Of a DNA stretch of 64,000 nt, positions 20,447-64,000 are shown piece after piece. The stretch is from assembly GCA_964016885.1 (NCBI GenBank), contig OZ024744.1:102734001-102798000 (forward strand). Reading direction: 5' to 3'. Position 1 is the stretch's first letter. Every line of letters starts with the position of its first letter. This stretch comes from Eledone cirrhosa. Its lineage: Eukaryota. The notes below the pieces were generated by a model. It was not told the DNA's origin. It saw only the letters and a program-made list of their open reading frames with translations, and made no database searches. A program made the position numbers and the translations under genes.

Positions 20447-23400
20447 CTAACATAGTCTAAATATAGACGGTGCTGCAAAATTTTTTGTCCAGTGGACCCT
20501 ACGACCTGAACGGGTCGTGGTCTTGTAACGTGGCGATGGTGGTGGTGTAGGGACAGGCGATGATGGTGGTTCAGGAACAGTCGGTCGCTCAACAGGCAAA
20601 TACGAAGGGGTTCGTGGATCAGGAACCACAGCGTCCGTGTCAAGGTGAGCCTGCTTAAGCCTGTCTATTGTAACTGTCTCCCTGGACCCCTTAATATCTA
20701 ATGTGAAATGCTTAGCCGAGCGCGCTAAGACACAGTAAGGTCCAGTGTAAGGCTGTGTGAGCGGGGGCTTCACCGTATCATTCCTTACAAAGACATGCGT
20801 CCACGAGGCAATATCCCTCGGGACAGCAGTCTTGACAGTTTGTTTCCTACTGTCCATTGGCGGCAAATCCTGGAAATAGGAGCGCAAACGGGACACGTAG
20901 GAAGCGTGATCTTGGGCATCAAGATCGATAGGGGCGAGCATTTGCCCGGGCAACGTCAGAGGGGCACCGTACAGTACTTCGGCCGGTGAAAATCTAAAGT
21001 CGACCTTCACCGTTGACCGAATCCCTAGTAGCACAATAGGGAGGTACTCGCTCCAATGCGCCGAGTCCATTGAGGCCATTAAGGAGGCCTTCAGTTGGCG
21101 GTGAAAACGCTCCACCATACCATTCGAAGCGGGATGGTATGCCGTCGTTCTAATGTGTTTAGCACCAATTAATGTTGACAGCTCGAGAAAAAGGCTCGAC
21201 TCGAACTGTCGTCCACGGTCGGTAGTTATTGTGGATGGAACTCCATAACGAGAGATCCATCCAGACACAAGAACACGTGCTGTTGTCTCCGCGGTGATGT
21301 TTTTCAAGGGGATGGCCTCAGGCCATCTCGAAAAACGGTCAATGACGGTAAGTAGATAAGAAAAACCATCGCTGACAGGCCAAGGTCCCACTATGTCAAT
21401 ATGAATATGTGAAAAATGCGCATCTGGGTTAGCAAAGGTACCCAGGGGAGCCTTGACGTGTCGATGGACCTTTGATCTCTGGCAAGCGACGCAGGAACGG
21501 GACCAAGCAGCAATTTCACGCCTCATATTTGGCCGGAAAAATCTAGCTGATATGAGCTTTGCTGTGGCAGAAGATCCTGGATGCGAGATACAATGTAATC
21601 CCAGAAACACGGTCCGACGATGATTCTCTGGAACGAAGGGCCTAGGCACGTCCAAAGAGACGTCGCAGAGAATTTGGCCAACTGCAGTCGACAGAGGCAA
21701 GTATTTCATCTCGCAATTCGCAAACTCGGGCGATGTGACATCCAATGACTCAAGGGGAGGCTGATCCGCAGCCAAACGAGTCAGATCTATGTCAGAGGAT
21801 GACGAGATCGCTGTCACGGGTAAGCGGGACAAAGCATCGGCTGCTGTATTTAGTGAACCCGGAATGTGCTGGATATCACTCGTATATTGCGAGATGAAAT
21901 CAAGGTGTCTCGTCTCTCTGGGCGAGTATTTATCAGCCTTCACTCTCAAAGAAAAAGTCAATGGTTTATGGTCAGTGAGGATAGTAAATTGTTTACCCTC
22001 TAGCACATGTGAAAAATGTTTCACGGCCAAAAGCTCTCTTCCAAAGGTGCTGTAGCGCGTCTCAGCAGGATTTAGCTTTTTGGAAAAAAACTCCAGCGGT
22101 TGCTGGTAACCATTGATGTTTTGCTGTAGTACTGCGCCCACAGCGATATCCGATGCATCAACACAAAGCGTTAGCTTTCCACCGGGTACCGGGTGAGTCA
22201 GTAACGAAGCATTAGCCAAAACAGTTTTGGCGTGCTGAAAATCAGCAAGTTGAGTGTCAAAGAAATATCTTTGTTCTTCCTCCGACAATTTTTCAAAATT
22301 TCTGTCAGGGAGAAAAGCAATGTTGCACAATTTGGCACGAAACGCCTATAAAAGTTAATCAGACCTAAGAACTGGCATAACTGACGTAGTGAGGTCGGTG
22401 GAGGCAAATCCTCTATGACCTTAACTCGCTCAGGCCGGGGTCGAATACCGTCAGCATCGATGACGTGACCCAAGAAAGTCAGTGACTCAGCACCAAAAAC
22501 ACATTTGGGTGCATTAAGCTGCACGTTATACGCCTTCAATCGGCGGAAAAGAAGATTCAAATGGTGCGTATGCTGCTCTGGAGAAGAACTAGCAATGAGC
22601 AGGTCGTCAATATAGGTATAGACGAAATCGAGGCCGCGAGTAACCTCATCCATAAACCGCTGAAAAGTACTAGCGGCATTCCTTAATCCGAACGGCATAG
22701 TCAAAAACTCGAAAGACCCAAATGGCGTAACTATAGCCGTTTTTGGAATGTCATTTTTATGGACAGGAATTTGATGGTACGCACGAATTAAATCCAGTTT
22801 GGAGAATATCTTGCATCCCTGCAACGAAGACGCAAAGTCTTGCAGATGAGGGATAGGATAACGGTCCGGTACCGTTATCGAATTCAGGCGTCGATAATCT
22901 CCAGTAGGTCTCCAATCGCCATTCGCTTTCGGTACCATGTGTAATGGGGACGCCCACGGGCTCGTGGACGGACGAACAATCCCCATTTGCAGCATATGAT
23001 CAAATTCTGATCGTGCTGCTTTGAGTTTGTCCGGAGGCAAGCGACGAGGACGAGAGAAAACGGGAGCACCAATTGTAGATATGAAGTGCTCCGTGGTATG
23101 AGTTGGTTCATCAAATCGAAAATTTCCCCGAGTCAGTTGCGGGAACGAGTTCAACAACGCATGGAAAGGATCACCGGTGTTAGCAAGAAAAAATGTCGGG
23201 CTAACCGTTGGAACTCCTGCCGCCTTGCCAACAACAGTTAATCCCGTGATGCCATCAATTAGGCGTTTACCACGAAGGTCCACCGTCAATGAAAAATGGT
23301 GGAGAAAATCCGCGCCTAGAATCGGATACGGCAAGGCAGCGACAGTAAATATCCATTTAAACTCGCGCCGCAGATTACGAAACTGCAAAGGTAACGAGAT

Positions 23401-25519: not shown

Positions 25520-28378
25520 ACCATACTATATACTTTCTACTTTTCAAATATATACTATATACTTTCTACCTTTCAAATATATACTATATACCATACTATA
25601 TACTTTCTACATTTCAAATATATACTATTAGCAGTGGTACCCGGCGTTGCACGGGATAAGGTATTTGGGAATACGAGCCGCCAACAGGCCTATCGTGGAA
25701 AAACTGCATGCCTGGACAATATGTAAAGAAAATAAACCGAATACTCTGATGGCTGGATAATCTTTAAGATTTTCCTCGATGAAGCAGGAAAAATGCAGGT
25801 TTTCTCCTAATGGATTAAGAAAATGAATTTTTTTATGTGCATAATATGCCTTGAAATTTCGGGAAAATCGGCTAGACGTAACGCCTCAAAAAAGCCCTAA
25901 AGAGCTGAAAAAAAAAAAATGAAGTTTTTCACCTAATGCAGTTTAATTTGTTATGTGCATAACACTCCCTGAAACATAAGTAATACACATGTAAAGTTTG
26001 AAAAAAATCGGTTGGGTACTTTTCGAGTTTTAGGGATTCAAACTCACAGGCAGACATCCTCAGTTTTATATATATAGATATACTTTCTACCTTTCAAATA
26101 TATACTATGTACAATACTATATACGTTTTACCTTTCAAATATATACTATATACCACACTATATACTTTCTACCTTTCAAATATAAACTATATACCCCACT
26201 ATATACGTTTTACCTTTCAAATATATACTATATACCACACTATATACTTTCTACCTTTCAAATATAAACTATATACCCCACTATATACTTTCTACCTTTC
26301 AAATATAAACTATATACCACACTATATACTTTCTACCTTTCAAATATAAACTATATACCCCACTATTTACTTTCTACCTTTTAAATATAAACTGTATACC
26401 CCACTATTTACTTTCTACCTTTCAAATATAAACTACATACCACACTATTTACTTTCTACCTTTCAAATATAAACTACATACAACACTATTTACTTTCTAC
26501 CTTTCAAATATAAACTACATACAACACTATTTACTTTCTACCTTTTAAGTATAAACTGTATACCACACTATATACTTTCTACCTTTCAAATATAAACTAC
26601 ATACCACACTATTTACTTTCTACCTTTCAAATATAAACTACATACAACACTATTTACTTTCTACCTTTCAAATATAAACTGTATACCACACTATTTACTT
26701 TCTATCTTTCAAATAAATACTATATACCCCACTATTTACTTTCTACCTTTTAAATATATACTGTATACCCCACTATTTACTTTCTACCTTTAAAATATAA
26801 ACTATATACCACACTATATACTTTCTACCTTTAAAATATAAACTATATACTTTCTACCTTTCAAATATATACTATATACCCCACTATATACTTTCTACCT
26901 TTCAAATATAAACTATATACCCCACTATTTACTTTCTACCTTTCAAATATATACTATATACCCCACTATTTACTTTCTACCTTTCAAATATATACTATGT
27001 ACAATACTATATACGTTTTACCTTTCAAATATATACTATATACCACACTATATACTTTCTACCTTTCAAATATATACTATATACCACACTATATACTTTC
27101 TACCTTTCAAATATATACTATATACCACACTATATACTTTCTCCCTTTCAAATATATACTATATACCCCACTATTTACTTTCTACCTTTAAAATATAAAC
27201 TATATACAACACTATTTACTTTCTACCTTTTAAGTATAAACTATATACCACACTATTTACTTTCTACCTTTCAAATATAAACTATATACCACACTATATA
27301 CTTTCTACCTTTCAAATATAAACTGTATACCACACTATTTACTTTCTCCCTTTCAAATATAAACTATATACCACACTATTTACTTTCTACCTTTTAAGTA
27401 TAAACTATATACCCCACTATATACTTTCTACCTTTCAAATATATACTATATACCACACTATTTACTTTCTACTTTTCAAATATAAACTATATACAACACT
27501 ATTTACTTTCTACCTTTTAAGTATAAACTATATACCCCACTATTTACTTTCTACCTTTCAAATATAAACTATATACCCCACTATTTACTTTCTACCTTTC
27601 AAATATAAACTATATACCACACTATTTACTTTCTACCTTTTAAGTATAAACTGTATACCCCACTATTTACTTTCTACCTTTCAGATATAAACTATATACC
27701 ACACTATTTACTTTCTACCTTTCAAATATATACTATATACCACACTATATACTTTCTACCTTTCAAATATATACTATATACCACACTATTTACTTTCTAC
27801 CTTTTAAGTATAAACTATATACAACACTATTTACTTTCTACCTTTCAAATATATACTATATACAACACTATATACTTTCTACCTTTTAAATATAAACTGT
27901 ATACCCCACTATTTACTTTCTACCTTTCAAATATAAACTATATACCACACTATATACTTTCTACCTTTCAAATATAAACTATATACCACACTATATACTT
28001 TCTCCCTTTCAAATATAAACTATATACCACACTATTTACTTTCTACCTTTCAAATATAAACTATATACCACACTATATACTTTCTCCCTTTCAAATATAA
28101 ACTATATACCACACTATTTACTTTCTACCTTTCAAATATAAACTATATACCACACTATATACTTTCTCCCTTTCAAATATAAACTATATACCACACTATT
28201 TACTTTCTACCTTTCAAATATAAACTATATACCACACTATATACTTTCTACCTTTCAAATATATACTATATACCACACTATATACTTTCTACCTTTCAAA
28301 TATAAACTATATACCACACTATTTACTTTCTACCTTTTAAATATAAACTGTATACCACACTATTTACTTTCTATCTTC
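25520..28378. repeat. 41-bp satellite/minisatellite, about 55-60 copies, interrupted by a Helitron
   Basis: Unit ccacactatatactttctacctttcaaatatatactatata, with point variants; the + strand is almost free of G. Confidence 0.95.
25628..26078 (-). mobile_element. Non-autonomous Helitron inserted in the satellite
   Basis: On the minus strand: 5' TCTATATATATAAAAC, 3' hairpin cccgtgcaacgccggg then taccactgCTAA. Inserted between A and T of a satellite unit with no TSD. Confidence 0.8.
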
Positions 28379-29112
28379 CAAATCTCATATTTAGGAGAGG
28401 AAAAGAAAGATTTACCCTAAAATCTATTTATTCAGTTTCTAAAATGACCTCTCTCTGCTTTTTTAAACTCCGACTGTTAACCAACGCTAAAAAGTACCTG
28501 GTATGAAATAACAAAACATCTTATATTTACAATGTTTGAATAAAACCCAACATTTAAATTCTTTATATACATTAGGCTGTTACCCGTTTAAAATTATGTA
28601 GAATTTAATTTGATGAATCTTTACCTAATCATCTGTCTTGGATAGAAATGTTTTTGTGTGCATGCAATAAATCTGACCACGAAACTCGCTGGGAATTGTA
28701 TTTCACGTTTCAGTAGGAGAATATTTTTAAAAGAAAAAGCATTAAAAAAGTTGGCACTACAACGCTATTAGCTGTCAGTCCAAGCAGCCGATGGAAACAG
28801 GCGAAGGTGACGTCACTCGTCAAACATCGTTTATTTCCGTATTACTACCACGCGTAAGTAGAGTTTTCACGCGTTTTTTTTGGAGAGAGAGAGGGAAGGC
28901 TTAAAAGGGCCAAATTAGAAAACAAGTCATGGTTATAAAACATATCGATGTAAGTGGAGTTACTTAAATGAAAATATATGTGGCCCTTAAAAGGGCCAAA
29001 TTAGAAAACAAGTCATGGTTATCAAATAAATTTGATTTATTCATTTATATTTTCATTATTCACCAACCTTATTTAAAAGCATGTTTAGAAATATTTTTTT
29101 CACAAACCTTAT

Positions 29113-29990
29113 TCAAATGCATGGAATCTGATGACGGATATGTTCTAATAACTTTTGGAAAATTTCTCCTTTAAATTCATACCGCCACATGAATTCAATG
29201 AGGTGGGTTTGAAGCAAATTTCTGGCTGTCCCGTTTTCCCTTTTATTCCTATTTTTTACGTGTTTCCACAAGCATTCTATGTGATTCGTTGTGGCAAATG
29301 TTACTGGATCAACAAAATTGATCGAATGGTTCACCGTCAAATGTTGATAGCCTAGCTGATCGATCGTATTATAGGAACGCCATAGATCAGATATTATGGT
29401 TGTCCCTGGCAATATACGATCCTGTATAATGGTTAAAAGTGTCTCCGCTGTCCTGTCTTCTACTGCTACTAAAATACATCTTCTGGTACTTCTTTCCAAA
29501 GCACCAAAAACCCACTGTGTTTTCACAGAATGGCCACGATGGTATTTCCTTCTCACGAATGCGCTTTCATCAATCTCGACAATTCGGTTTGGCCCGCCAA
29601 GCTTAATGTTTTGTGCCACATAGTACTCTGCACATACATCACGGCAAACATTTCGCCAATCTGCTACGGCCACATTCGCGATACGACATTCCTCTGAAAT
29701 CTTCTTGGTTAAATCTTCTTTGGCCCAAAAATATAATATATCAACTATTTGTTCACACTTCAAATTGCTATTTTCTAATAGAAACCTGTTTTCTACATGG
29801 TCTTTTACACGACCAGATAATCCCATCTGACACATTTTGTTTCGCTACTTCCAACATAGGTTGACCACATGAAGGGCAGACCTTTCGTGTATTCAGAAGT
29901 CCTTGAATTTTCAACCAATTGACGATATCTGCTGTAGTAGCGGTAGCGATGGTTAATTCCCTTAACACTTGGATATATTATAGAATTCAT
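29113..29990 (-). pseudogene. Merlin/ISXO2 (IS1595-family-like) DDE transposase, left arm
   Basis: N-terminal CPSC...WSC..C zinc ribbon, then GGPNRIVEIDES, WVFG, IISDLWRSY, VNHS, TNHIECLW, HLIEFMWR. Frameshift at QVSIRK*. Confidence 0.92.
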
Positions 29991-30766
29991 CTTTCAACTT
30001 GCAGATGCGTGTATTATCACAAAGTGAAGATTAAAGTTTATTTATTTACACGTGGTGTTGGTGGTGTTGGTGATGATTGTTGCTGATTGGTGGGGATTGT
30101 CGCTTGTCTCCATGGGCACTGTATCCATGCTTTTGAATAAGGTTGGTGAAAATAATTTGTTTTCTAAACATTTATTCATAAATATATAGGGTTGGTGAAA
30201 ACATTTGATAACCATAATTTGGCCCTTTTAAGGGCCACCTATATTTTCATTTAAGTTAACTCCACTGTTGGTGAAAATGACTTGTTTGTTTATATTGATA
30301 ACCATAACTATGAAAATATGTGACGTCATTCGTCAACCTTCCCCTACTTCTTTACAGTTCATGGTATTAGCTGTCAGACAGTTCATGGTATTAGCTGTCA
30401 GAAGAGAAAGTAGGGGAAGGTTGACGAATGACGTCACATATTTTCATAGTTATGGTTATCAATATAAAAAAACAAGTCATTTTCACCAACAGTGGAGTTA
30501 ACTTAAATGAAAATATAGGTGGCCCTTAAAAGGGCCAAATTATGGTTATCAAATGTTTTCACCAACCCTATATGTTTATGAATAAATGTTTAGAAAACAA
30601 ATTATTTTCACCAACCTTATTCAAAAGCATGGATACAGTGCCCATGGAGACAAGCGACAATCCCCACCAATCAGCAACAATCATCACCAACACCACCAAC
30701 ACCACGTGTAAATAAATAAACTTTAATCTTCACTTTGTGATAATACACGCATCTGCAAGTTGAAAG

Positions 30767-31630
30767 ATGAATTCTATAACATATCCAAGTGTTAAGGGAA
30801 TTAACCATCGCTACCGCTACTACAGCAGATATCGTCAATTGGTTGAAAATTCAAGGACTTCTGAATACACGAAAGGTCTGCCCTTCATGTGGTCAACCTA
30901 TGTTGGAAGTAGCGAAACAAAATGTGTCAGATGGGATTATCTGGTCGTGTAAAAGACCATGTAGAAAACAGGTTTCTATTAGAAAATAGCAATTTGAAGT
31001 GTGAACAAATAGTTGATATATTATATTTTTGGGCCAAAGAAGATTTCAGAGGAATGTCGTATCGCGAATGTGGCCGTAGCAGATTGGCGAAATGTTTGCC
31101 GTGATGTATGTGCAGAGTACTATGTGGCACAAAACATTAAGCTTGGCGGGCCAAACCGAATTGTCGAGATTGATGAAAGCGCATTCGTGAGAAGGAAATA
31201 CCATCGTGGCCATTCTGTGAAAACACAGTGGGTTTTTGGTGCTTTGGAAAGAAGTACCAGAAGATGTATTTTAGTAGCAGTAGAAGACAGGACAGCAGAG
31301 ACACTTTTAACCATTATACAGGATCGTATATTGCCAGGGACAACCATAATATCTGATCTATGGCGTTCCTATAATACGATCGATCAGCTAGGCTATCAAC
31401 ATTTGACGGTGAACCATTCGATCAATTTTGTTGATCCAGTAACATTTGCCACAACGAATCACATAGAATGCTTGTGGAAACACGTAAAAAATAGGAATAA
31501 AAGGGAAAACGGGACAGCCAGAAATTTGCTTCAAACCCACCTCATTGAATTCATGTGGCGGTATGAATTTAAAGGAGAAATTTTCCAAAAGTTATTACAA
31601 CATATCCGTCATCAGATTCCATGCATTTGA
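30767..31630 (+). pseudogene. Merlin/ISXO2 DDE transposase, right arm
   Basis: Same protein as the left arm with the same frameshift, plus an extra 14-bp deletion near 31040. Confidence 0.92.
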
Positions 31631-32399
31631 ATAAGGTTGGTGAAAAAAATGTTTCTAAACATGCTTTTAAATAAGGTTGGTGAATAATGAAAATATAAAT
31701 GAATAAATCAAATTTATTTGATAACCATGACTTGTTTTCTAATTTGGCCCTTTTAAGGGCCACATATATTTTCATTTAAGTAACTCCACTTACATCGATA
31801 TGCTTTATAACCATGACTTGTTTTCTAATTTGCCCCTTTTAAGCCTTCCCTCTCTCTCCCCCTCCCCCTCTCTCTCCTCTTCCCCACTCACCCCTCTCTC
31901 GCTCCAAAAAAACGAGTGAAAACTCCACTTATACGTGGTAGTAATACGGAAATAAACGATGTTTGACGAGTGACGTCACCTTCGCCTGTTTCCGTCGGCT
32001 GCTTGGACTGACAGCTAATAGCGTTGTAGTGCCAAAAAGTCAAATCCCATTATTTGACACGAAGCCATTCTGATACTCATATAATATATGAAGAATTTTA
32101 TTGTTTATAATTCTTACAGAATGAAAATATAAACACCTATAATACAATTGCTACTTCATAGTTGCACAAACAACATTACAAATCGTTTGCAATTCCTTCA
32201 GAATGAAAATATAAACAGAGCATATAAATAAATTTACAGTAGAATAACATAACAAATGTTTTAAATATATACATAAATAACACTACAAATGCTTAGATAA
32301 CATTATAAATTACTCGCGATTCTTTCAGAAGGATATATTCCTTTAATGTTGCAATATTAAAGAAAATGTAAAAGAAGGGGTGAACAACGGAGCCAACAC

Positions 32400-35434: not shown

Positions 35435-38400
35435 CGAGGGCAGTTGACCTCAACATAAAGCCACCAAACCGTCATTTCTTCATTAAGGACCTTAGGTCGG
35501 GAAGAGGTTTCCTCGTGGATACAGGAGCCTCCTGTAGTATTTGGCCGGTCCATTGCCTGAAAGATACCCCCGTAGAGTCATCCGTTACTCTACAGGCCGT
35601 TAATCACTCATCTATAAAGACGTACGGGCAAATCTCGCTTCCTCTCAAATTCCTAAATCTTCATAGGGATTTTAAGTGGATTTTTACGGTTGCCAATTTG
35701 CCATACCCTATCTTAGGAGCAGATTTCCTCCACAACTTCTCTTTGACTGTGGACGTCCGTGGCCAATGCCTGGTGAGTGACATCACCGGTTTCTCAATTC
35801 GTGGCCGGAAAGCCAATGCTCCAACAGTCAGCCCCATATTCATCGCTGCCGCTGGAGACGCCTACCATTCGTTGTTAGGTTCTTTCCCGGAGCTCACCGA
35901 TGGAAATTTTCGAGTCACTGAGCCAACACACTCAACTGAACATTTCATTTCCACCACCGGTGCTCCAGTGTTTTCGCGTCCACACCGCTTACCGGCGGAC
36001 AAATTAAAGGCAGCACGGTCCGAGTTTGACCATATGCTGCAGCTGGGCATTATTCGCCCATCTATGAGTCCTTGGGCTTCACCGTTACACATGGTGCCTA
36101 AGACTTCTGGCGGCTGGAGACCCACTGGGGATTATAGGAGGTTAAATGCTATGACTGTCCCGGATAGGTATCCCATTCCCCATCTCCAGGATTTCGCATC
36201 TTCATTGCAGGGGTGTAAGATTTTCTCAAAACTAGATTTAGTGCGAGCCTACCACCAATTCCGAAAACGGCGATTACAACTCCTTTCGGATCCTTCGAAT
36301 TTTTGACCATGCCTTTCGGACTCAGGAACGCCGCTAGCACTTTTCAGCGGTTCATAGACGAAGTCACTCGTGGTCTAGACTTCGTTTATGGTTACATAGA
36401 CGATCTTCTCGTCGCTAGTTCCTCTCTGGAAGAGCATATGCGCCACATGAATCTCTTATTTCGGCGACTTCAGGATTACCGCGTTCATGTGAATCCCGCA
36501 AAGTGTGTTTTCGGTTCCACTTCGCTACATTTTTTAGGCCACCTCATCGACGCCGAAGGTATTAGGCCGCTCCCTCAGTGAGTTCAAGCCATACAGGATT
36601 TACCTCCGCCTACTACACTTCACCAGTTACGTCACTTCTTAGGCCTAATCAATTTCTATAGGCGTTTCGTTCCTCATTGTGCTAATTTGCTATCTTCCCT
36701 TACTGACATTTTGAAAAATCGTCGTAAGAAGAATGAGGATATTTCCTTGACACAAGGATAGCTTCAAGACTTCCAGACTGCCAAGACAGCACTCGCTAGT
36801 TCATCTTTGCTAGCCCACCCGGTACCAGAGGCCAAGCTTTCGCTTTGTGTTGATGCATCTGATACCGCTGTGGGAGCAGTTTTACAACAGTATAATGCTG
36901 GAAACCAACAACCTTTTGCATTTTTCTCAAGGAAGCTGAAACCAGCAGAAACGCGTTACAGCATGTTTGGGCGGGAATTATTAGCCATATATCTGTCGGT
37001 GAAACATTTCTCTCATATTCTTGAGGGGAGAAATTTTACTATTTTAACCGACCACAAACCTCTGACCTTCGCTTTGAGGGCTAAAGCCGACAGATATTCG
37101 CCCAGAGAGACAAGGCACCTGGATTATGTTTCGCAATTTACAAATGATATCCAGCACATTGCTGGCTCACATAACATAGCTGCAGATGCATTGTCACGTT
37201 TGCCAATCAGCTCCATCTCGTCATCCCAGGAGATCGACTTAGGTCGTTTAGCTGCAGACCAACCTGCACTCCAATCGTTGGATACTCTTTCTGCCGAATT
37301 TGCGACTTGCATCTTCAAATATCTGCCCTTGTCGACCACTGACAAGCAGATTCTATGTGATGTATCTACGGATTCACCACGACCATTTGTTCCTGAGACT
37401 CACCGTCGAATTGTGTTCCCTGCTTTGCACAGCATTTCTCACACTGGAATTTCTGCCACAGTAAAGCTTATAACGGCTAGATTTTTCTGGCCCAATATGA
37501 GGCGAGAAATTACTGTCTGGTGCCGTTCCTGCACACAGTGTCAGAGATCTAAAATCCACAGACACATCCGGACTCCACTTGGTACTTTCAGTACTCCAGA
37601 TGCTCGGTTTCAACACATCCACATTGATATCGTTGGACCTTGGCCATTCAGCAGTGGATATTCGTACCTCTTGACCTGTATCGATCGTTTTTCGCGATGG
37701 CCTGAAGCCATCCCCTTAAAAGATATAACTGCTGAGACTGTAGCACGTCCCCTGGTTTCAGGGTGGATTACCCGCTTTGGGGTACCAACTACAGTCACCA
37801 CAGACCATGGTAGACAAGTTGAGTCTCATCTCTTCTCTGAGCTGACAAAGATCTTTGGTGCTCAACGTATTCGGACCACAGCTTATCATCCTGCTTCAAA
37901 CGGAATGGTGGAACGATTCCACCGCCAATTAAAGGCCGCTCTTCCCGCCTATCCAGACTCTCAACGTTGGAGCGAGTACCTTCCTATTGTGTTATTAGGA
38001 ATTCGGTCATCAATAAAGGAGGACCTTGGCTTCTCCCCGGCCGAATTACTGTATGGTGCTCCTCTAACGTTGCCTGGGCAAATGCTTGCTCCTGTTGATC
38101 TTGCTTTCCAGGACCCTGTTTCCTATATATCTCGTTTGCGCTCCTATTTTCAGGACTTACCGCCCATGAATACTAGGAAACAAACTATTAAAGCTGCAGT
38201 CCCGAGGGATATTGTCTCGTGGACACATCTATTCGTCAGAAACGGTGCGGTTACTCCACCCCTCACACAACCGTACTCTGGACCCTACCGTGTGTTATCA
38301 CGTACTGACAAACATTTCACTGTAGACATTAAGGGGTCCAGAGAGACAATTTCGGTGGATAGACTAAAAAGGGCATACAGTGACGCTCATAAACCCGAGC

Positions 38401-60332: not shown

Positions 60333-60770
60333 GTCACTCTCTCAATTACCGTTTCTCTCTCCTCTGTCTCACTCTCTATCTCACACACACAGACTGTCTT
60401 GGTCTCTCTCTCACTCTATTTGTCTATCTGACTCTCTCTCTCTCTCTCAATCTATCTATCTATCTCTCCCTGTTTACTTTACTGACTTTCTGCCTCTCCC
60501 TGTTTCTCTCTCTCTCTCTCTCTTTCTCTGTCACTCTCTCAATTACCGTTTCTCTCTCCTCTGTCTCACTCTCTATCTCACACACACAGACTGTCTTGGT
60601 TTCTCTCTGACTCTATTTCTCTCTTTTCTTCACTGTCTCTCCCTCTCTCTCTGCCTCAATCTCCTCTTTCTCTCTGTCACATTTTCCACCACTCCCACTA
60701 CATTTCTCTCTCTCATTCTCTGTCTCAATCACTATCTCTCCCCCTCTCTCTCTATGTCTGTTTTTCTCTC
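59220..60770. repeat. CT-rich low-complexity/microsatellite tract with an internal duplication of about 210 bp
   Basis: (CT)n, (CTGT)n and (CTAT)n; 60212-60420 is repeated at 60418-60620. Confidence 0.92.
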
Positions 60771-60789
60771 TATATCCCAGTTAATTTAT

Positions 60790-63700
60790 TGGTCAGTCTA
60801 TTGGTCTGAGAGATGTCGGTTGGTTGGTCTGTCGGTTGGTTGGTCTATCGGCTGGTTGGTCAATCTATCAGTTGGTCAGTTGGTCTGTCTGTCGGTTGGT
60901 TGGTCTGTCGGTTGGTTGGTCTGTCGGTTGGTTGGTCAATCTCTCAGTTGGTCGGTTGGTCAATCTCTCAGTTGGTCGGTCTGTCGGTTTGTTGGTCAAT
61001 CTGTCAGTTGGTCAGTCTGTCGGTTGGTTGGTCTGTCGGTTGGTTGGTCTGTCGGTTTGTTGGTCAATCTGTCAGTTGGTCAGTCTGTCGGTTTGTTGGT
61101 CAATCTGTCAGTTGGTCAGTCTGTCGGTTGGTTGGTCTGTCGGTTGGTTGGTTGGTCTGTCGGTTGGTTGGTCAATCTGTCAGTTGGTCGGTTGGTCTGT
61201 CTCTCAGTTGGTTGGTCTGTCGGTTGGTTGGTCAATCTGTCAGTTGGTCAGTCTGTCAGTTGGTTGGTCTGTCGGTTGGTTGGTCTGTCGGTTTGTTGGT
61301 CAATCTGTCAGTTGGTCAGTCTGTCGGTTTGTTGGTCAATCTGTCAGTTGGTCAGTCTGTCAGTTGGTTGGTCTGACGGTTTGTTGGTCAATCTGTCAGT
61401 TGGTCAGTTGGTCTGTCTGTCAGTTGGTCAGTCTGTCAGTTGGTTGGTCTGTCGGTTTGTTGGTCAATCTGTCAGTTGGTCAGTTGGTCTGTCTGTCAGT
61501 TGGTCAGTCTGTCAGTTGGTTGGTCTGTCGGTTTGTTGGTCAATCTGTCAGTTGGTCAGTTGGTCTGTCTGTCAGTTGGTTGGTCTGTCGGTTTGTTGGT
61601 CAATCTGTCAGTTGGTCTGTCTCTCAGTTGGTTGGTCAATCTGTCAGTTGGTCTGTCTCTCAGTTGGTTGGTCTGTTGGTTGGTTGGTCAATCTGTCAGT
61701 TGGTCTGTCGGCTGGTTGGTCAATCTGTCAGTTGGTCTGTCTCTCAGTTGGTTGGTCTGTCGGCTGGTTGGTCAATCTGTCAGTTGGTCAGTTGGTCTGT
61801 CTCTCAGTTGGTTGGTCTGTTGGTTGGTTGGTCAATCTGTCAGTTGGTCAGTTGATCTGTCTGTCAGTTGGTTGGTCAATCTGTCAGTTGGTCAGTTGGT
61901 CTGTCTGACAGTTGGTTGGTCTGTCGGTTGGTTGGTCAATCTGTCAGTTGGTCAGTCTGTCAGTTGGTTGGTCTGTCGGTTGGTTGGTCAATCTGTCAGT
62001 TGGTTGGTCTGTCGGTTGGTTGGTCAATCTGTCAGTTGGTCAGTTGGTCTGTCGGTCAGTTAGTTGGTCTGTCGGTCAGTTGGTTGGTCTGTCGGCTGGT
62101 TGGTCAATCTGTCAGTTGGTCTGTCTCTCAGTTGGTTGGTCTGTCGGTTTGTTGGTCAATCTGTCAGTTAGTCAGTTGGTCTGTCTGTCAGTTGGTTGGT
62201 CTGTCGGTTGGTTGGTCTGACGGTTTGTTGGTCAATCTGTCAGTTGGTCAGTCTGTCGGTTGGTTGGTCTGTCGGTTGGTTGGTCAATCTGTCAGTTGGT
62301 CGGTTGGTCTGTCTCTCAGTTGGTTGGTCTGTCGGTTGGTCAATCTGTCAGTTGGTCAGTTGGTCAGTCTGTCAGTTGGTTGGTCTGTCGGTTGGTTGGT
62401 CTGTCGGTTTGTTGGTCAATCTGTCAGTTGGTCGGTTGGTCTGTCTCTCAGTTGGTTGGTCTGTCGGTTGGTTGGTCAATCTGTCAGTTGGTCAGTCTGT
62501 CAGTTGGTTGGTCTGTCGGTTGGTTGGTCTGTCGGTTGGTTGGTCAATCTGTCAGTTGGTCGGTTGGTCTGTCTCTCAGTTGGTTGGTCTGTCGGTTGGT
62601 TGGTCAATCTGTCAGTGGTCAGTCTGTCAGTTGGTTGGTCTGTCGGTTGGTTGGTCTGTCGGTTTGTTGGTCAATCTGTCAGTTGGTCAGTCTGACGGTT
62701 TGTTGGTCAATCTGTCAGTTGGTCAGTTGGTCTGTCTGTCTGTCAGTTGGCCAGTCTGTCAGTTGGTTGGTCTGTCGGTTTGTTGGTCAATCTGTCAGTT
62801 GGTCAGTTGGTCTGTCTGTCAGTTGGTTGGTCTGTCGGTTTGTTGGTCAATCTGTCAGTTGGTCTGTCTCTCAGTTGGTTGGTCAATCTGTCAGTTGGTC
62901 TGTCTCTCAGTTGGTTGGTCTGTTGGTTGGTTGGTCAATCTGTCAGTTGGTCTGTCGGCTGGTTGGTCAATCTGTCAGTTGGTCTGTCTCTCAGTTGGTT
63001 GGTCTGTCAGCTGGTTGGTCAATCTGTCAGTTGGTCAGTTGGTCTGTCTCTTAGTTGGTTGGTCTGTTGGTTGGTCAATCTGTCAGTTGGTCAGTTGGTC
63101 TGTCTGTCAGTTGGTTGGTCAATCTGTCAGTTGGTCAGTTGGTCTGTCTGACAGTTGGTTGGTCTGTCGGTTGGTTGGTCAATCTGTCAGTTGGTCAGTC
63201 TGTCAGTTGGTTGGTCTGTCGGTTGGTTGGTCAATCTGTCAGTTGGTCAGTTGGTCTGTCTGTCAGTTGGTTGGTCTGTCGGTTGGTTGGTCAATCTGTC
63301 AGTTGGTCAGTTGGTCTGTCGGTCAGTTGGTTGGTCTGTCGGCTGGTTGGTCAATCTGTCGGTTGGTCTGTCTCTCAGTTGGTTGGTCTGTCGGTTTGTT
63401 GGTCAATCTGTCAGTTGGTCTGTCTCTCAGTTGGTTGGTCTGTCGGCTGGTTGGTCAATCTCTCAGTTGGTCAGTTGGTCTGTCTCTCAGTTGGTTGGTC
63501 TGTCAGTTGGTCAGTTGGTCTGTCTGTCAGTTGGTTGGTCTGTCGGTTGGTTGGTCAATCTGTCAGTTGGTTGGTCTGTCGGTTGGTTGGTCAATCTGTC
63601 AGTTGGTCAGTCTGTCAGTTGGTTGGTCTGTCGGTTGGTTGGTCAATCTGTCAGTTGGTCAGTTGGTCTGTCTTTCAGTTGGTTGGTCTGTTGGTTGGTT

Positions 63701-64000
63701 GGTCAATCTGTCAGTTGGTCAGTTGGTCTGTCTGTCAGTTGGTTGGTCAATCTGTCAGTCGGTCAGTCTGACAGTTGGTTGGTCTGCCTGTCGGTTGGTC
63801 AGTCTGTCAGTTGGTTGGTCTGTCGGTTGGTTGGTCAATCTGTCCGTTGGTCAGTTGGTCTGTCGGTTAGTTGGTTGGTCTGTCGGCTGGTTGGTCAATC
63901 TGTCGGTTGGTCTGTCTCTCAGTTGGTTGGTCTGTCGGTTTGTTGGTCAATCTGTCAGTTGGTCTGTCTCTCAGTTGGTTGGTCTGTCGGCTGGTTGGTC
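60790..64000. repeat. Complex G/T-rich satellite built from 4-nt words; runs off the window end
   Basis: Parses as GTTG/GTCT/GTCA/GTCG/ATCT/GTTT/GCTG/CTCA. All S/V/G/W/L/C ORFs here are artefacts. Confidence 0.95.

Follow-up and report, generated by a model that had tools for sequence, protein, structure and literature searches.

The palindromic element, its ends and its surroundings

The analysed window, a stretch of 64,000 nucleotides of the Eledone cirrhosa genome, contains a 3.28-kb palindrome (contig C28), whose inverted arms occupy positions 28753-30349 (strand -) and 30408-32033 (strand +). The left arm comprises, from the outside inwards, the outermost terminus (GG at the start, located 3′ of the transposase), subterminal repeats, a transposase remnant and its upstream region; the right arm is the mirror of the left and carries CC at its end. 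In the end-to-end alignment the arms agree at 1571 positions and differ by 14 substitutions and by indels of 1, 14 and 44 bp, the longest of which is a CT-rich expansion present exclusively in the right arm (31859-31902, +). Pairing extends to 30349/30408, and the 58 bp between the arms (30350-30407) form an unpaired, asymmetric centre. An earlier note on this DNA had described inverted arms at this position, differing by a 14-bp deletion, a CT-rich insertion and several substitutions; this description was confirmed and the inner limits of the arms were refined.

The palindrome is bordered by the 8-bp sequences AAAAAGTT (28745-28752, +) on the left and AAAAAGTC (32034-32041, +) on the right, which are in direct orientation and identical at 7 of 8 positions. 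Among 2208 wrong pairings of flanks of the family, 6 matched at least as well, as did 5 of 4682 local 8-mers. Since such a match is so rare and thus exceeds chance expectation, we read the two sequences as a target-site duplication (TSD). The GG and CC termini and the flanking repeats had also been pointed out in the earlier note. A contig from run X1 matches the left flank (28327-28750) without mismatch, and its other 161 letters do not align in continuation of this match, which may hint at an allele without the element.

Two pol regions, which we take to be Gypsy-like, flank the element on either side (20639-23184 and 35845-38384); they are in opposite orientation and 72-74% alike. The repeats here resemble those of octopods. 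The window also contains two long tandem arrays with extreme strand skew (26085-28370 and 60700-64000), the first of which ends ~370 bp before the element.

The transposase genes

An ISXO2/Merlin transposase domain (DDE_Tnp_IS1595, Pfam PF12762; E 2.5e-19 and 1.6e-19) lies in each arm and points outward, as had been proposed from the first inspection of the sequence. The two gene remnants, located at 29113-29990 (-) and 30767-31630 (+), were compared with an uninterrupted 302-aa transposase copy in locus L022, in which the D-D-E motifs stand at positions 148, 210 and 246. Relative to this copy, 14 bp are missing from both arms at codon 13 (near 29952 and 30805) and 17 bp at codon 76 (near 29778 and 30979), and the right arm has lost a further 14 bp at codon 100 (near 31035). 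Both frames end ~60 codons past the ATG. The D-D-E motifs, which had been called intact, are indeed present, but neither gene is intact. Because both transposase copies are frameshifted by common deletions, the window element is non-autonomous, and it lacks the uninterrupted frame of an autonomous Merlin.

The aligned 14- and 17-bp losses sit between short direct repeats and recur across many unrelated copies; for this reason we regard the 14-bp difference between the window arms as a hotspot event. Five copies of the family of the window element (family 1) retain open frames of 293-303 aa, with no stop within the match. A contig from run X5 (organism B) is identical in 233 of 235 letters to the transposase sequence at window positions 31414-31648. 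The flank of L022 contains a 313-aa open frame (L022:7061-8002) with no Pfam match, which resembles part of a Helitron.

The asymmetric centre and the family hairpin

A search of the 3.0-Gb assembly with the centre of the palindrome gave 79 matches, and the junction was fully covered by the window alone. The loci around these matches were fetched (37), and 36 of them match the arm (L055, without an arm match, was left out). Because the loci of this study were retrieved by searching with the centre or the terminus, the sample is enriched in two-ended and hairpin-bearing copies.

The arm of 18 of these 36 copies terminates in a perfect hairpin, beyond which come a TG repeat and a long common block. 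The hairpin of family 1 has 71-bp perfect arms and a 4-nt loop (z -27), and in the giant relatives described below it stands at the same spot as the centre of the window element. The latter retains one half of this hairpin, with a 24-bp unit duplicated, and has lost most of the other half; an asymmetric centre of 58 bp would be expected to have greater stability than a perfect palindrome. The 24-bp unit is TIR-like, matching the terminus of older monomers minus its tip. Each half of the hairpin likewise corresponds to the terminus of the monomer L163 minus the tip. Judged from its sequence, the hairpin resembles a head-to-head fusion of two 5′ TIRs, which is what a dimer with a shortened second arm would be expected to leave behind.

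The loop was found in both orientations (21/36 and 10/36, with 5 unscorable copies). Breaks within ~25 bp past the hairpin apex, read by eye, were observed in 15 of the 36 copies, and the apex is a break hotspot. Internal sequence of a giant is joined at the break in 4 of the 13 apex breaks tested, one of which belongs to a 39.7-kb element with a 7/8 TSD (L044). Shared changes in both halves of the hairpin were nearly absent, with 1 shared site vs 15 one-sided (position 72, beyond the 71-bp arm, was left out of this count).

The apex was also considered as a transposon end and rejected, as a full TSD next to it was absent from all five apex-region copies in which a terminus could be seen. The sole partial TSD among these five was that of L052, a one-armed relative of the dimer L054, whose post-apex sequence repeats part of its left flank, as if everything from the apex to the right TSD had been lost. 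Just past the apex, L046 contains a frame that we take to resemble a dienelactone hydrolase exon, and L049 continues into a C2H2 zinc-finger array; these frames could represent flanking genes or captured DNA.

Monomers and giant relatives of family 1

The earlier note had anticipated a small monomeric parent. No close small monomer was found among the 37 loci of the centre search; the close relatives of the window element are instead giants of 22-48 kb, with one arm each, the 71-bp hairpin and nested retroelement debris. Older subfamilies, with 77-90% identity to the arm, account for the small monomers: L163 is an ordinary 2.38-kb monomer with a perfect TSD (83%), and two others are 2.18 kb (90%) and 1.86 kb (77%) long. 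A subfamily with the older terminus (L150-L161, L174-L176, L180-L181) is represented by 100 exact ends, which are often paired at a spacing of 0.2-1.7 kb and bordered by TSD-like sequences; read depth over a short part of this subfamily is very high in runs X1 and X6.

The 26-bp terminus of family 1 has 303 exact matches. Of the 97 termini listed on C1 and C2, neighbours at distances of 15-60 kb are oriented towards each other in 21 pairs and away from each other in 1. All seven giants examined over their whole length (22.2-28.1 kb) have 8-bp TSDs, 6 of them perfect (one in an AT repeat) and 1 at 7/8; four of the seven contain the transposase arm and three lack it. The ends alone were read for a further 18 pairs (22-48 kb among the TSD-positive ones), with 12 perfect TSDs, 1 at 7/8 and 5 failures. 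Single-end TSD tests were passed in 2 of 4 cases, L023 and L085 having failed or been unscorable.

The giants are mostly colinear at 80-97% identity. Their two ends are unlike each other, and at least two kinds of far end exist. The interiors listed for three of the seven consist of tandem and simple repeats and retroelement-like frames; the long frames of these three resemble RTE, Tx1, Gypsy or Penelope remnants, or are of low complexity. Host genes as a common cargo were therefore rejected. In seven regions of C1 and C2 (L090-L109), the interior includes degenerate TGTTAG and TTAGGG-like arrays. An Rfam search of 6 loci gave three borderline histone stem-loop matches at the subterminal repeat, which were taken as chance. 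Regularly spaced Merlin termini were noted at 252.5-253.0 Mb of C3, 12.4-13.1 Mb of C5 and 34.79-34.83 Mb of C18, and these runs suggest tandem or segmental amplification of giants.

In composite transposons and macrotransposons (Tn10; Ac macrotransposons), the transposase uses a distant end and carries the intervening DNA. The giants share these features with them, but the DNA they carry consists of simple repeats and the debris of nested retroelements, and it has been amplified as a family.

Other dimers of family 1

Seven two-ended candidates of family 1, including the window element, were identified, and their junctions are all different. The search for further palindromic copies that the earlier note had proposed thus had a divided outcome: the exact junction of the window is single-copy, but in the two-armed elements L043 (3.05 kb) and L054 (2.84 kb) both ends are alike, and their TSDs are perfect and differ from each other. 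L080 (0.71 kb) has a 7/8 TSD, and no clean TSD was found at the remaining three candidates (L042, L077 and L078). Two additional copies, L039 and L051, contain second-arm sequence and one terminus only.

The divergence of the arms within an element is 0.5% in the window, 0.6% in L054 and 1.2% in L042, compared with a family median of 2.6%; the arms of L043 are not sisters. Both window arms have eight rare alleles in common (L081 and L085 were too short for this comparison). Four rare alleles of the window arms are also present in L040, located on C28 at 5 Mb from the window, which in addition has a diagnostic base in common with the window element and carries ~ten copies of the 24-bp unit. The arms of L042 share 4-5 rare alleles with the giant L030, which favours the re-formation of L042 from a giant. 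On the other hand, the outer ends of the window element are more diverged than the inner arms (7/286 v 7/1174, p 0.01, a post hoc comparison; no such gradient occurs in L054). Together with the independence of the L043 arms, this favours old dimers with later equalising. These sequence signals conflict, and the family-1 dimers may go back either to one old master or to repeated re-formation.

A second Merlin family with the same build

A protein search revealed a further divergent pair of transposase genes on C11 (near 53.55 Mb). The element (L162:1546-5373) is a 3.83-kb palindrome with a perfect TSD, whose arms align with 1881 matches and 15 substitutions. Its transposase (PF12762), frameshifted alike in both arms, shares 34% identity with that of family 1 over 210 aa. 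A separate, near-perfect palindrome of 676 bp (L162:6022-6697, 99%) lies beside this dimer.

The asymmetric centre motif of L162 was found in 11 of the 21 fetched loci; four more match the centre by BLAST, one is without it and five are unrelated. L207-L211 were dropped from the family, since family-2 termini are absent from them and any similarity to the arm is short and weak. Different TSDs, six of them perfect and one at 7/8, flank seven of the two-ended copies, and a further one is without a TSD; the deleted arm of family 2 can be either one. No copy with an ordinary 5′ end was detected among the 29 family-2 candidates, drawn with a query that favours the centre.

The terminus of family 2 has 280 exact matches. 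Twenty short inward pairs were chosen from the first 100 of them; all have like ends, and 18 are flanked by TSDs (13 perfect). One centre-deletion junction is common to 7 of these 20 short elements, five of them ~1.72 kb long. The family-2 dimer is plainly multi-copy and the parent of a fold-back subfamily, and the master of the family appears to be a palindromic dimer of 3.8-4 kb (L162, L192-L206, L212-L231).

Comparison with known elements

The window element has the terminal GG of the Merlin superfamily and, at 7/8 identity, its 8- or 9-bp TSD, which is 8 bp long throughout the family. It departs from the layout in which TIRs flank one gene: the 1.6-kb arms contain the gene, so that two genes are present. 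The ordinary layout is found in the older monomers L163, L168 and L177, and the window element is a structural variant of it.

The available part of Lopes et al. (2021, PMC8101967) describes the Merlin superfamily as related to IS1016/IS1595, with TIRs of 24-462 bp, or ~1000 bp in two Repbase entries. The elements described here share with it the DDE_Tnp_IS1595 domain, the terminal GG, the 8-bp TSD and internal tandem repeats and, with its zebrafish members, long arms and large size. Table s010 of that paper includes Merlin-1_DR (~10 kb, TIR listed as 1000), Merlin-2_DR (to ~13.7 kb) and Merlin-N5_DR (~4.3 kb, TIR listed as 1000), and long Merlin arms are thus not new, since sizes of 10-14 kb and long arms are tabulated for zebrafish. 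The difference is that here the whole element including the gene constitutes the arm, with two divergent transposase genes as the result; the table as available does not state the position of the gene relative to the arm, and its largest coordinates are exceeded by the 22-48-kb giants. In the full-text literature, Repbase and most subscription papers aside, we found no Merlin with a gene in both arms, no multi-copy dimer and no Merlin above ~14 kb. The accessible portion of a paper on the repeats of O. vulgaris (PMC13282606) reports two Merlin families with recent activity and nowhere uses a word beginning with "palindrom-".

Very long inverted arms, a variable asymmetric middle, TSDs and non-autonomous copies are also features of foldback elements (FB, Galileo, Tetris), for which PMC4079207 refers to an origin in which the transposase was lost and the TIRs became longer. 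Their modular tandem-repeat arms without a gene are not found here; in contrast, the arms mirror the body of the element and still hold transposase DNA. This points to an origin by head-to-head dimerisation and deletion of the centre.

Origin of the window element and alternative explanations

The window element is probably a non-autonomous head-to-head Merlin dimer with its own TSD, likely formed by fold-back at an internal hairpin and likely inserted as a unit by a transposase from another copy. According to the available text of PMC7999016, a break beside an inverted repeat of 42-229 bp primes fold-back, giving rise to large palindromes. Both that system and the present one combine breaks at the hairpin with a short perfect repeat in the middle of a far larger palindrome, but here the product is bounded by transposon ends and has been relocated, while there it is a palindromic chromosome. 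The proposal of the earlier note that the palindrome moved as a single element with two 3′ ends is supported by its TSD, by L043 and L054 and by the seven TSD-flanked copies of family 2. The imperfect TSD (7/8) and the lack of a second copy of the junction count against the dimer interpretation.

The same two points would fit a one-off rearrangement, in which a giant or monomer inserted at this site turned palindromic locally and the dimer never moved, and so would the outer ends, which are as diverged as those of unrelated copies (2.4% v 2.1-2.7%). We consider such an event improbable, since fold-back at the site itself would yield a mirrored flank or leave the different far end of a giant, whereas both ends of the window element are of the same type and the flanks form a direct 8-bp repeat; moreover, the pattern recurs at other sites in L043, L054 and family 2.

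An additional interpretation concerns silencing, for which Mu killer of maize reportedly provides a precedent as an inverted transposon duplication. A dimer that is read through would produce 1.6 kb of dsRNA, and siRNA or piRNA made from it would make the element a mobile silencer of the Merlin family. The arms are 99% complementary over the whole gene, and the five family copies with long open frames would be possible targets. As far as the available part of the preprint goes (bioRxiv 10.1101/2020.01.07.897926), the maize loci (Mu killer as well as the Ac killers p1-ww-id1/id4) share with the window element an inverted duplication of transposon sequence including transposase DNA. In those cases, however, the 5′ termini are duplicated, dsRNA is transcribed from a host gene or the Ac promoter, and silencing acts in trans, whereas here the 3′ termini are outermost and the element has its own TSD. 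Because the 5′ ends of the outward genes meet at the centre, transcripts from their own promoters would run outward and cover one arm each, and a hairpin RNA would need read-through from outside. The long open frames of the 64-kb window look transposon-derived, which weighs against a silencer (small exons are not detectable), but a position of the element inside an intron is possible. Both families were amplified while dimers existed, which does not suggest strong self-silencing. A silencing role is improbable, and no host function of the window element is implied.

Finally, near-perfect palindromes are prone to assembly and read fold-back errors, and the window palindrome was read from assembly sequence, yet an artefact is very unlikely, as the arms differ at 14 sites and by 3 indels, the flanks bear a TSD and are not the mirror images that a read fold-back would create, and many independent palindromes with TSDs and a common centre are located on different chromosomes.

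A model for the dimers and their significance

The dimer interpretation may be extended to the following scheme: (i) an ordinary Merlin of ~2.3 kb would have been joined at the 5′ TIR to a mirror-image copy of itself, losing the TIR tips, (ii) the dimer, having two like, usable ends accepted by the transposase, would transpose, (iii) the presumably fragile centre would lead to loss of the middle, giving fold-back MITEs, or of one arm, (iv) in family 1, the second arm would have been lost 71 bp past the apex and a distant terminus used, generating the giants, and (v) dimers may also arise anew from giants when the hairpin primes fold-back, and the arms would have been partly re-equalised afterwards. 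Centre deletions, one-armed copies and giants would all follow from the fragility that we infer for the dimer centre. We lean towards the view that at least two unrelated Merlin families amplify through a master form, the head-to-head dimer with its two divergent transposase genes. This form would be the source both of swarms of fold-back MITEs, by deletion of the centre, and of the 22-48-kb giants, in which the second arm would have been lost and a distant end used instead.

This family-level picture outweighs the single broken copy of the window in importance. It offers a concrete, checkable origin for long-armed fold-back elements, namely a transposon fused to its own mirror image, with stages caught in two families (the full dimer, one-armed copies and a centre-deleted subfamily). 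It also exposes dozens of cut-and-paste elements of 22-48 kb, which repeat annotation would split into unrelated fragments and which bear on the cargo limits of the Merlin transposase and on the spread of repeat blocks. Mobile palindromes of 3-4 kb are ready-made fragile sites and potential sources of dsRNA.
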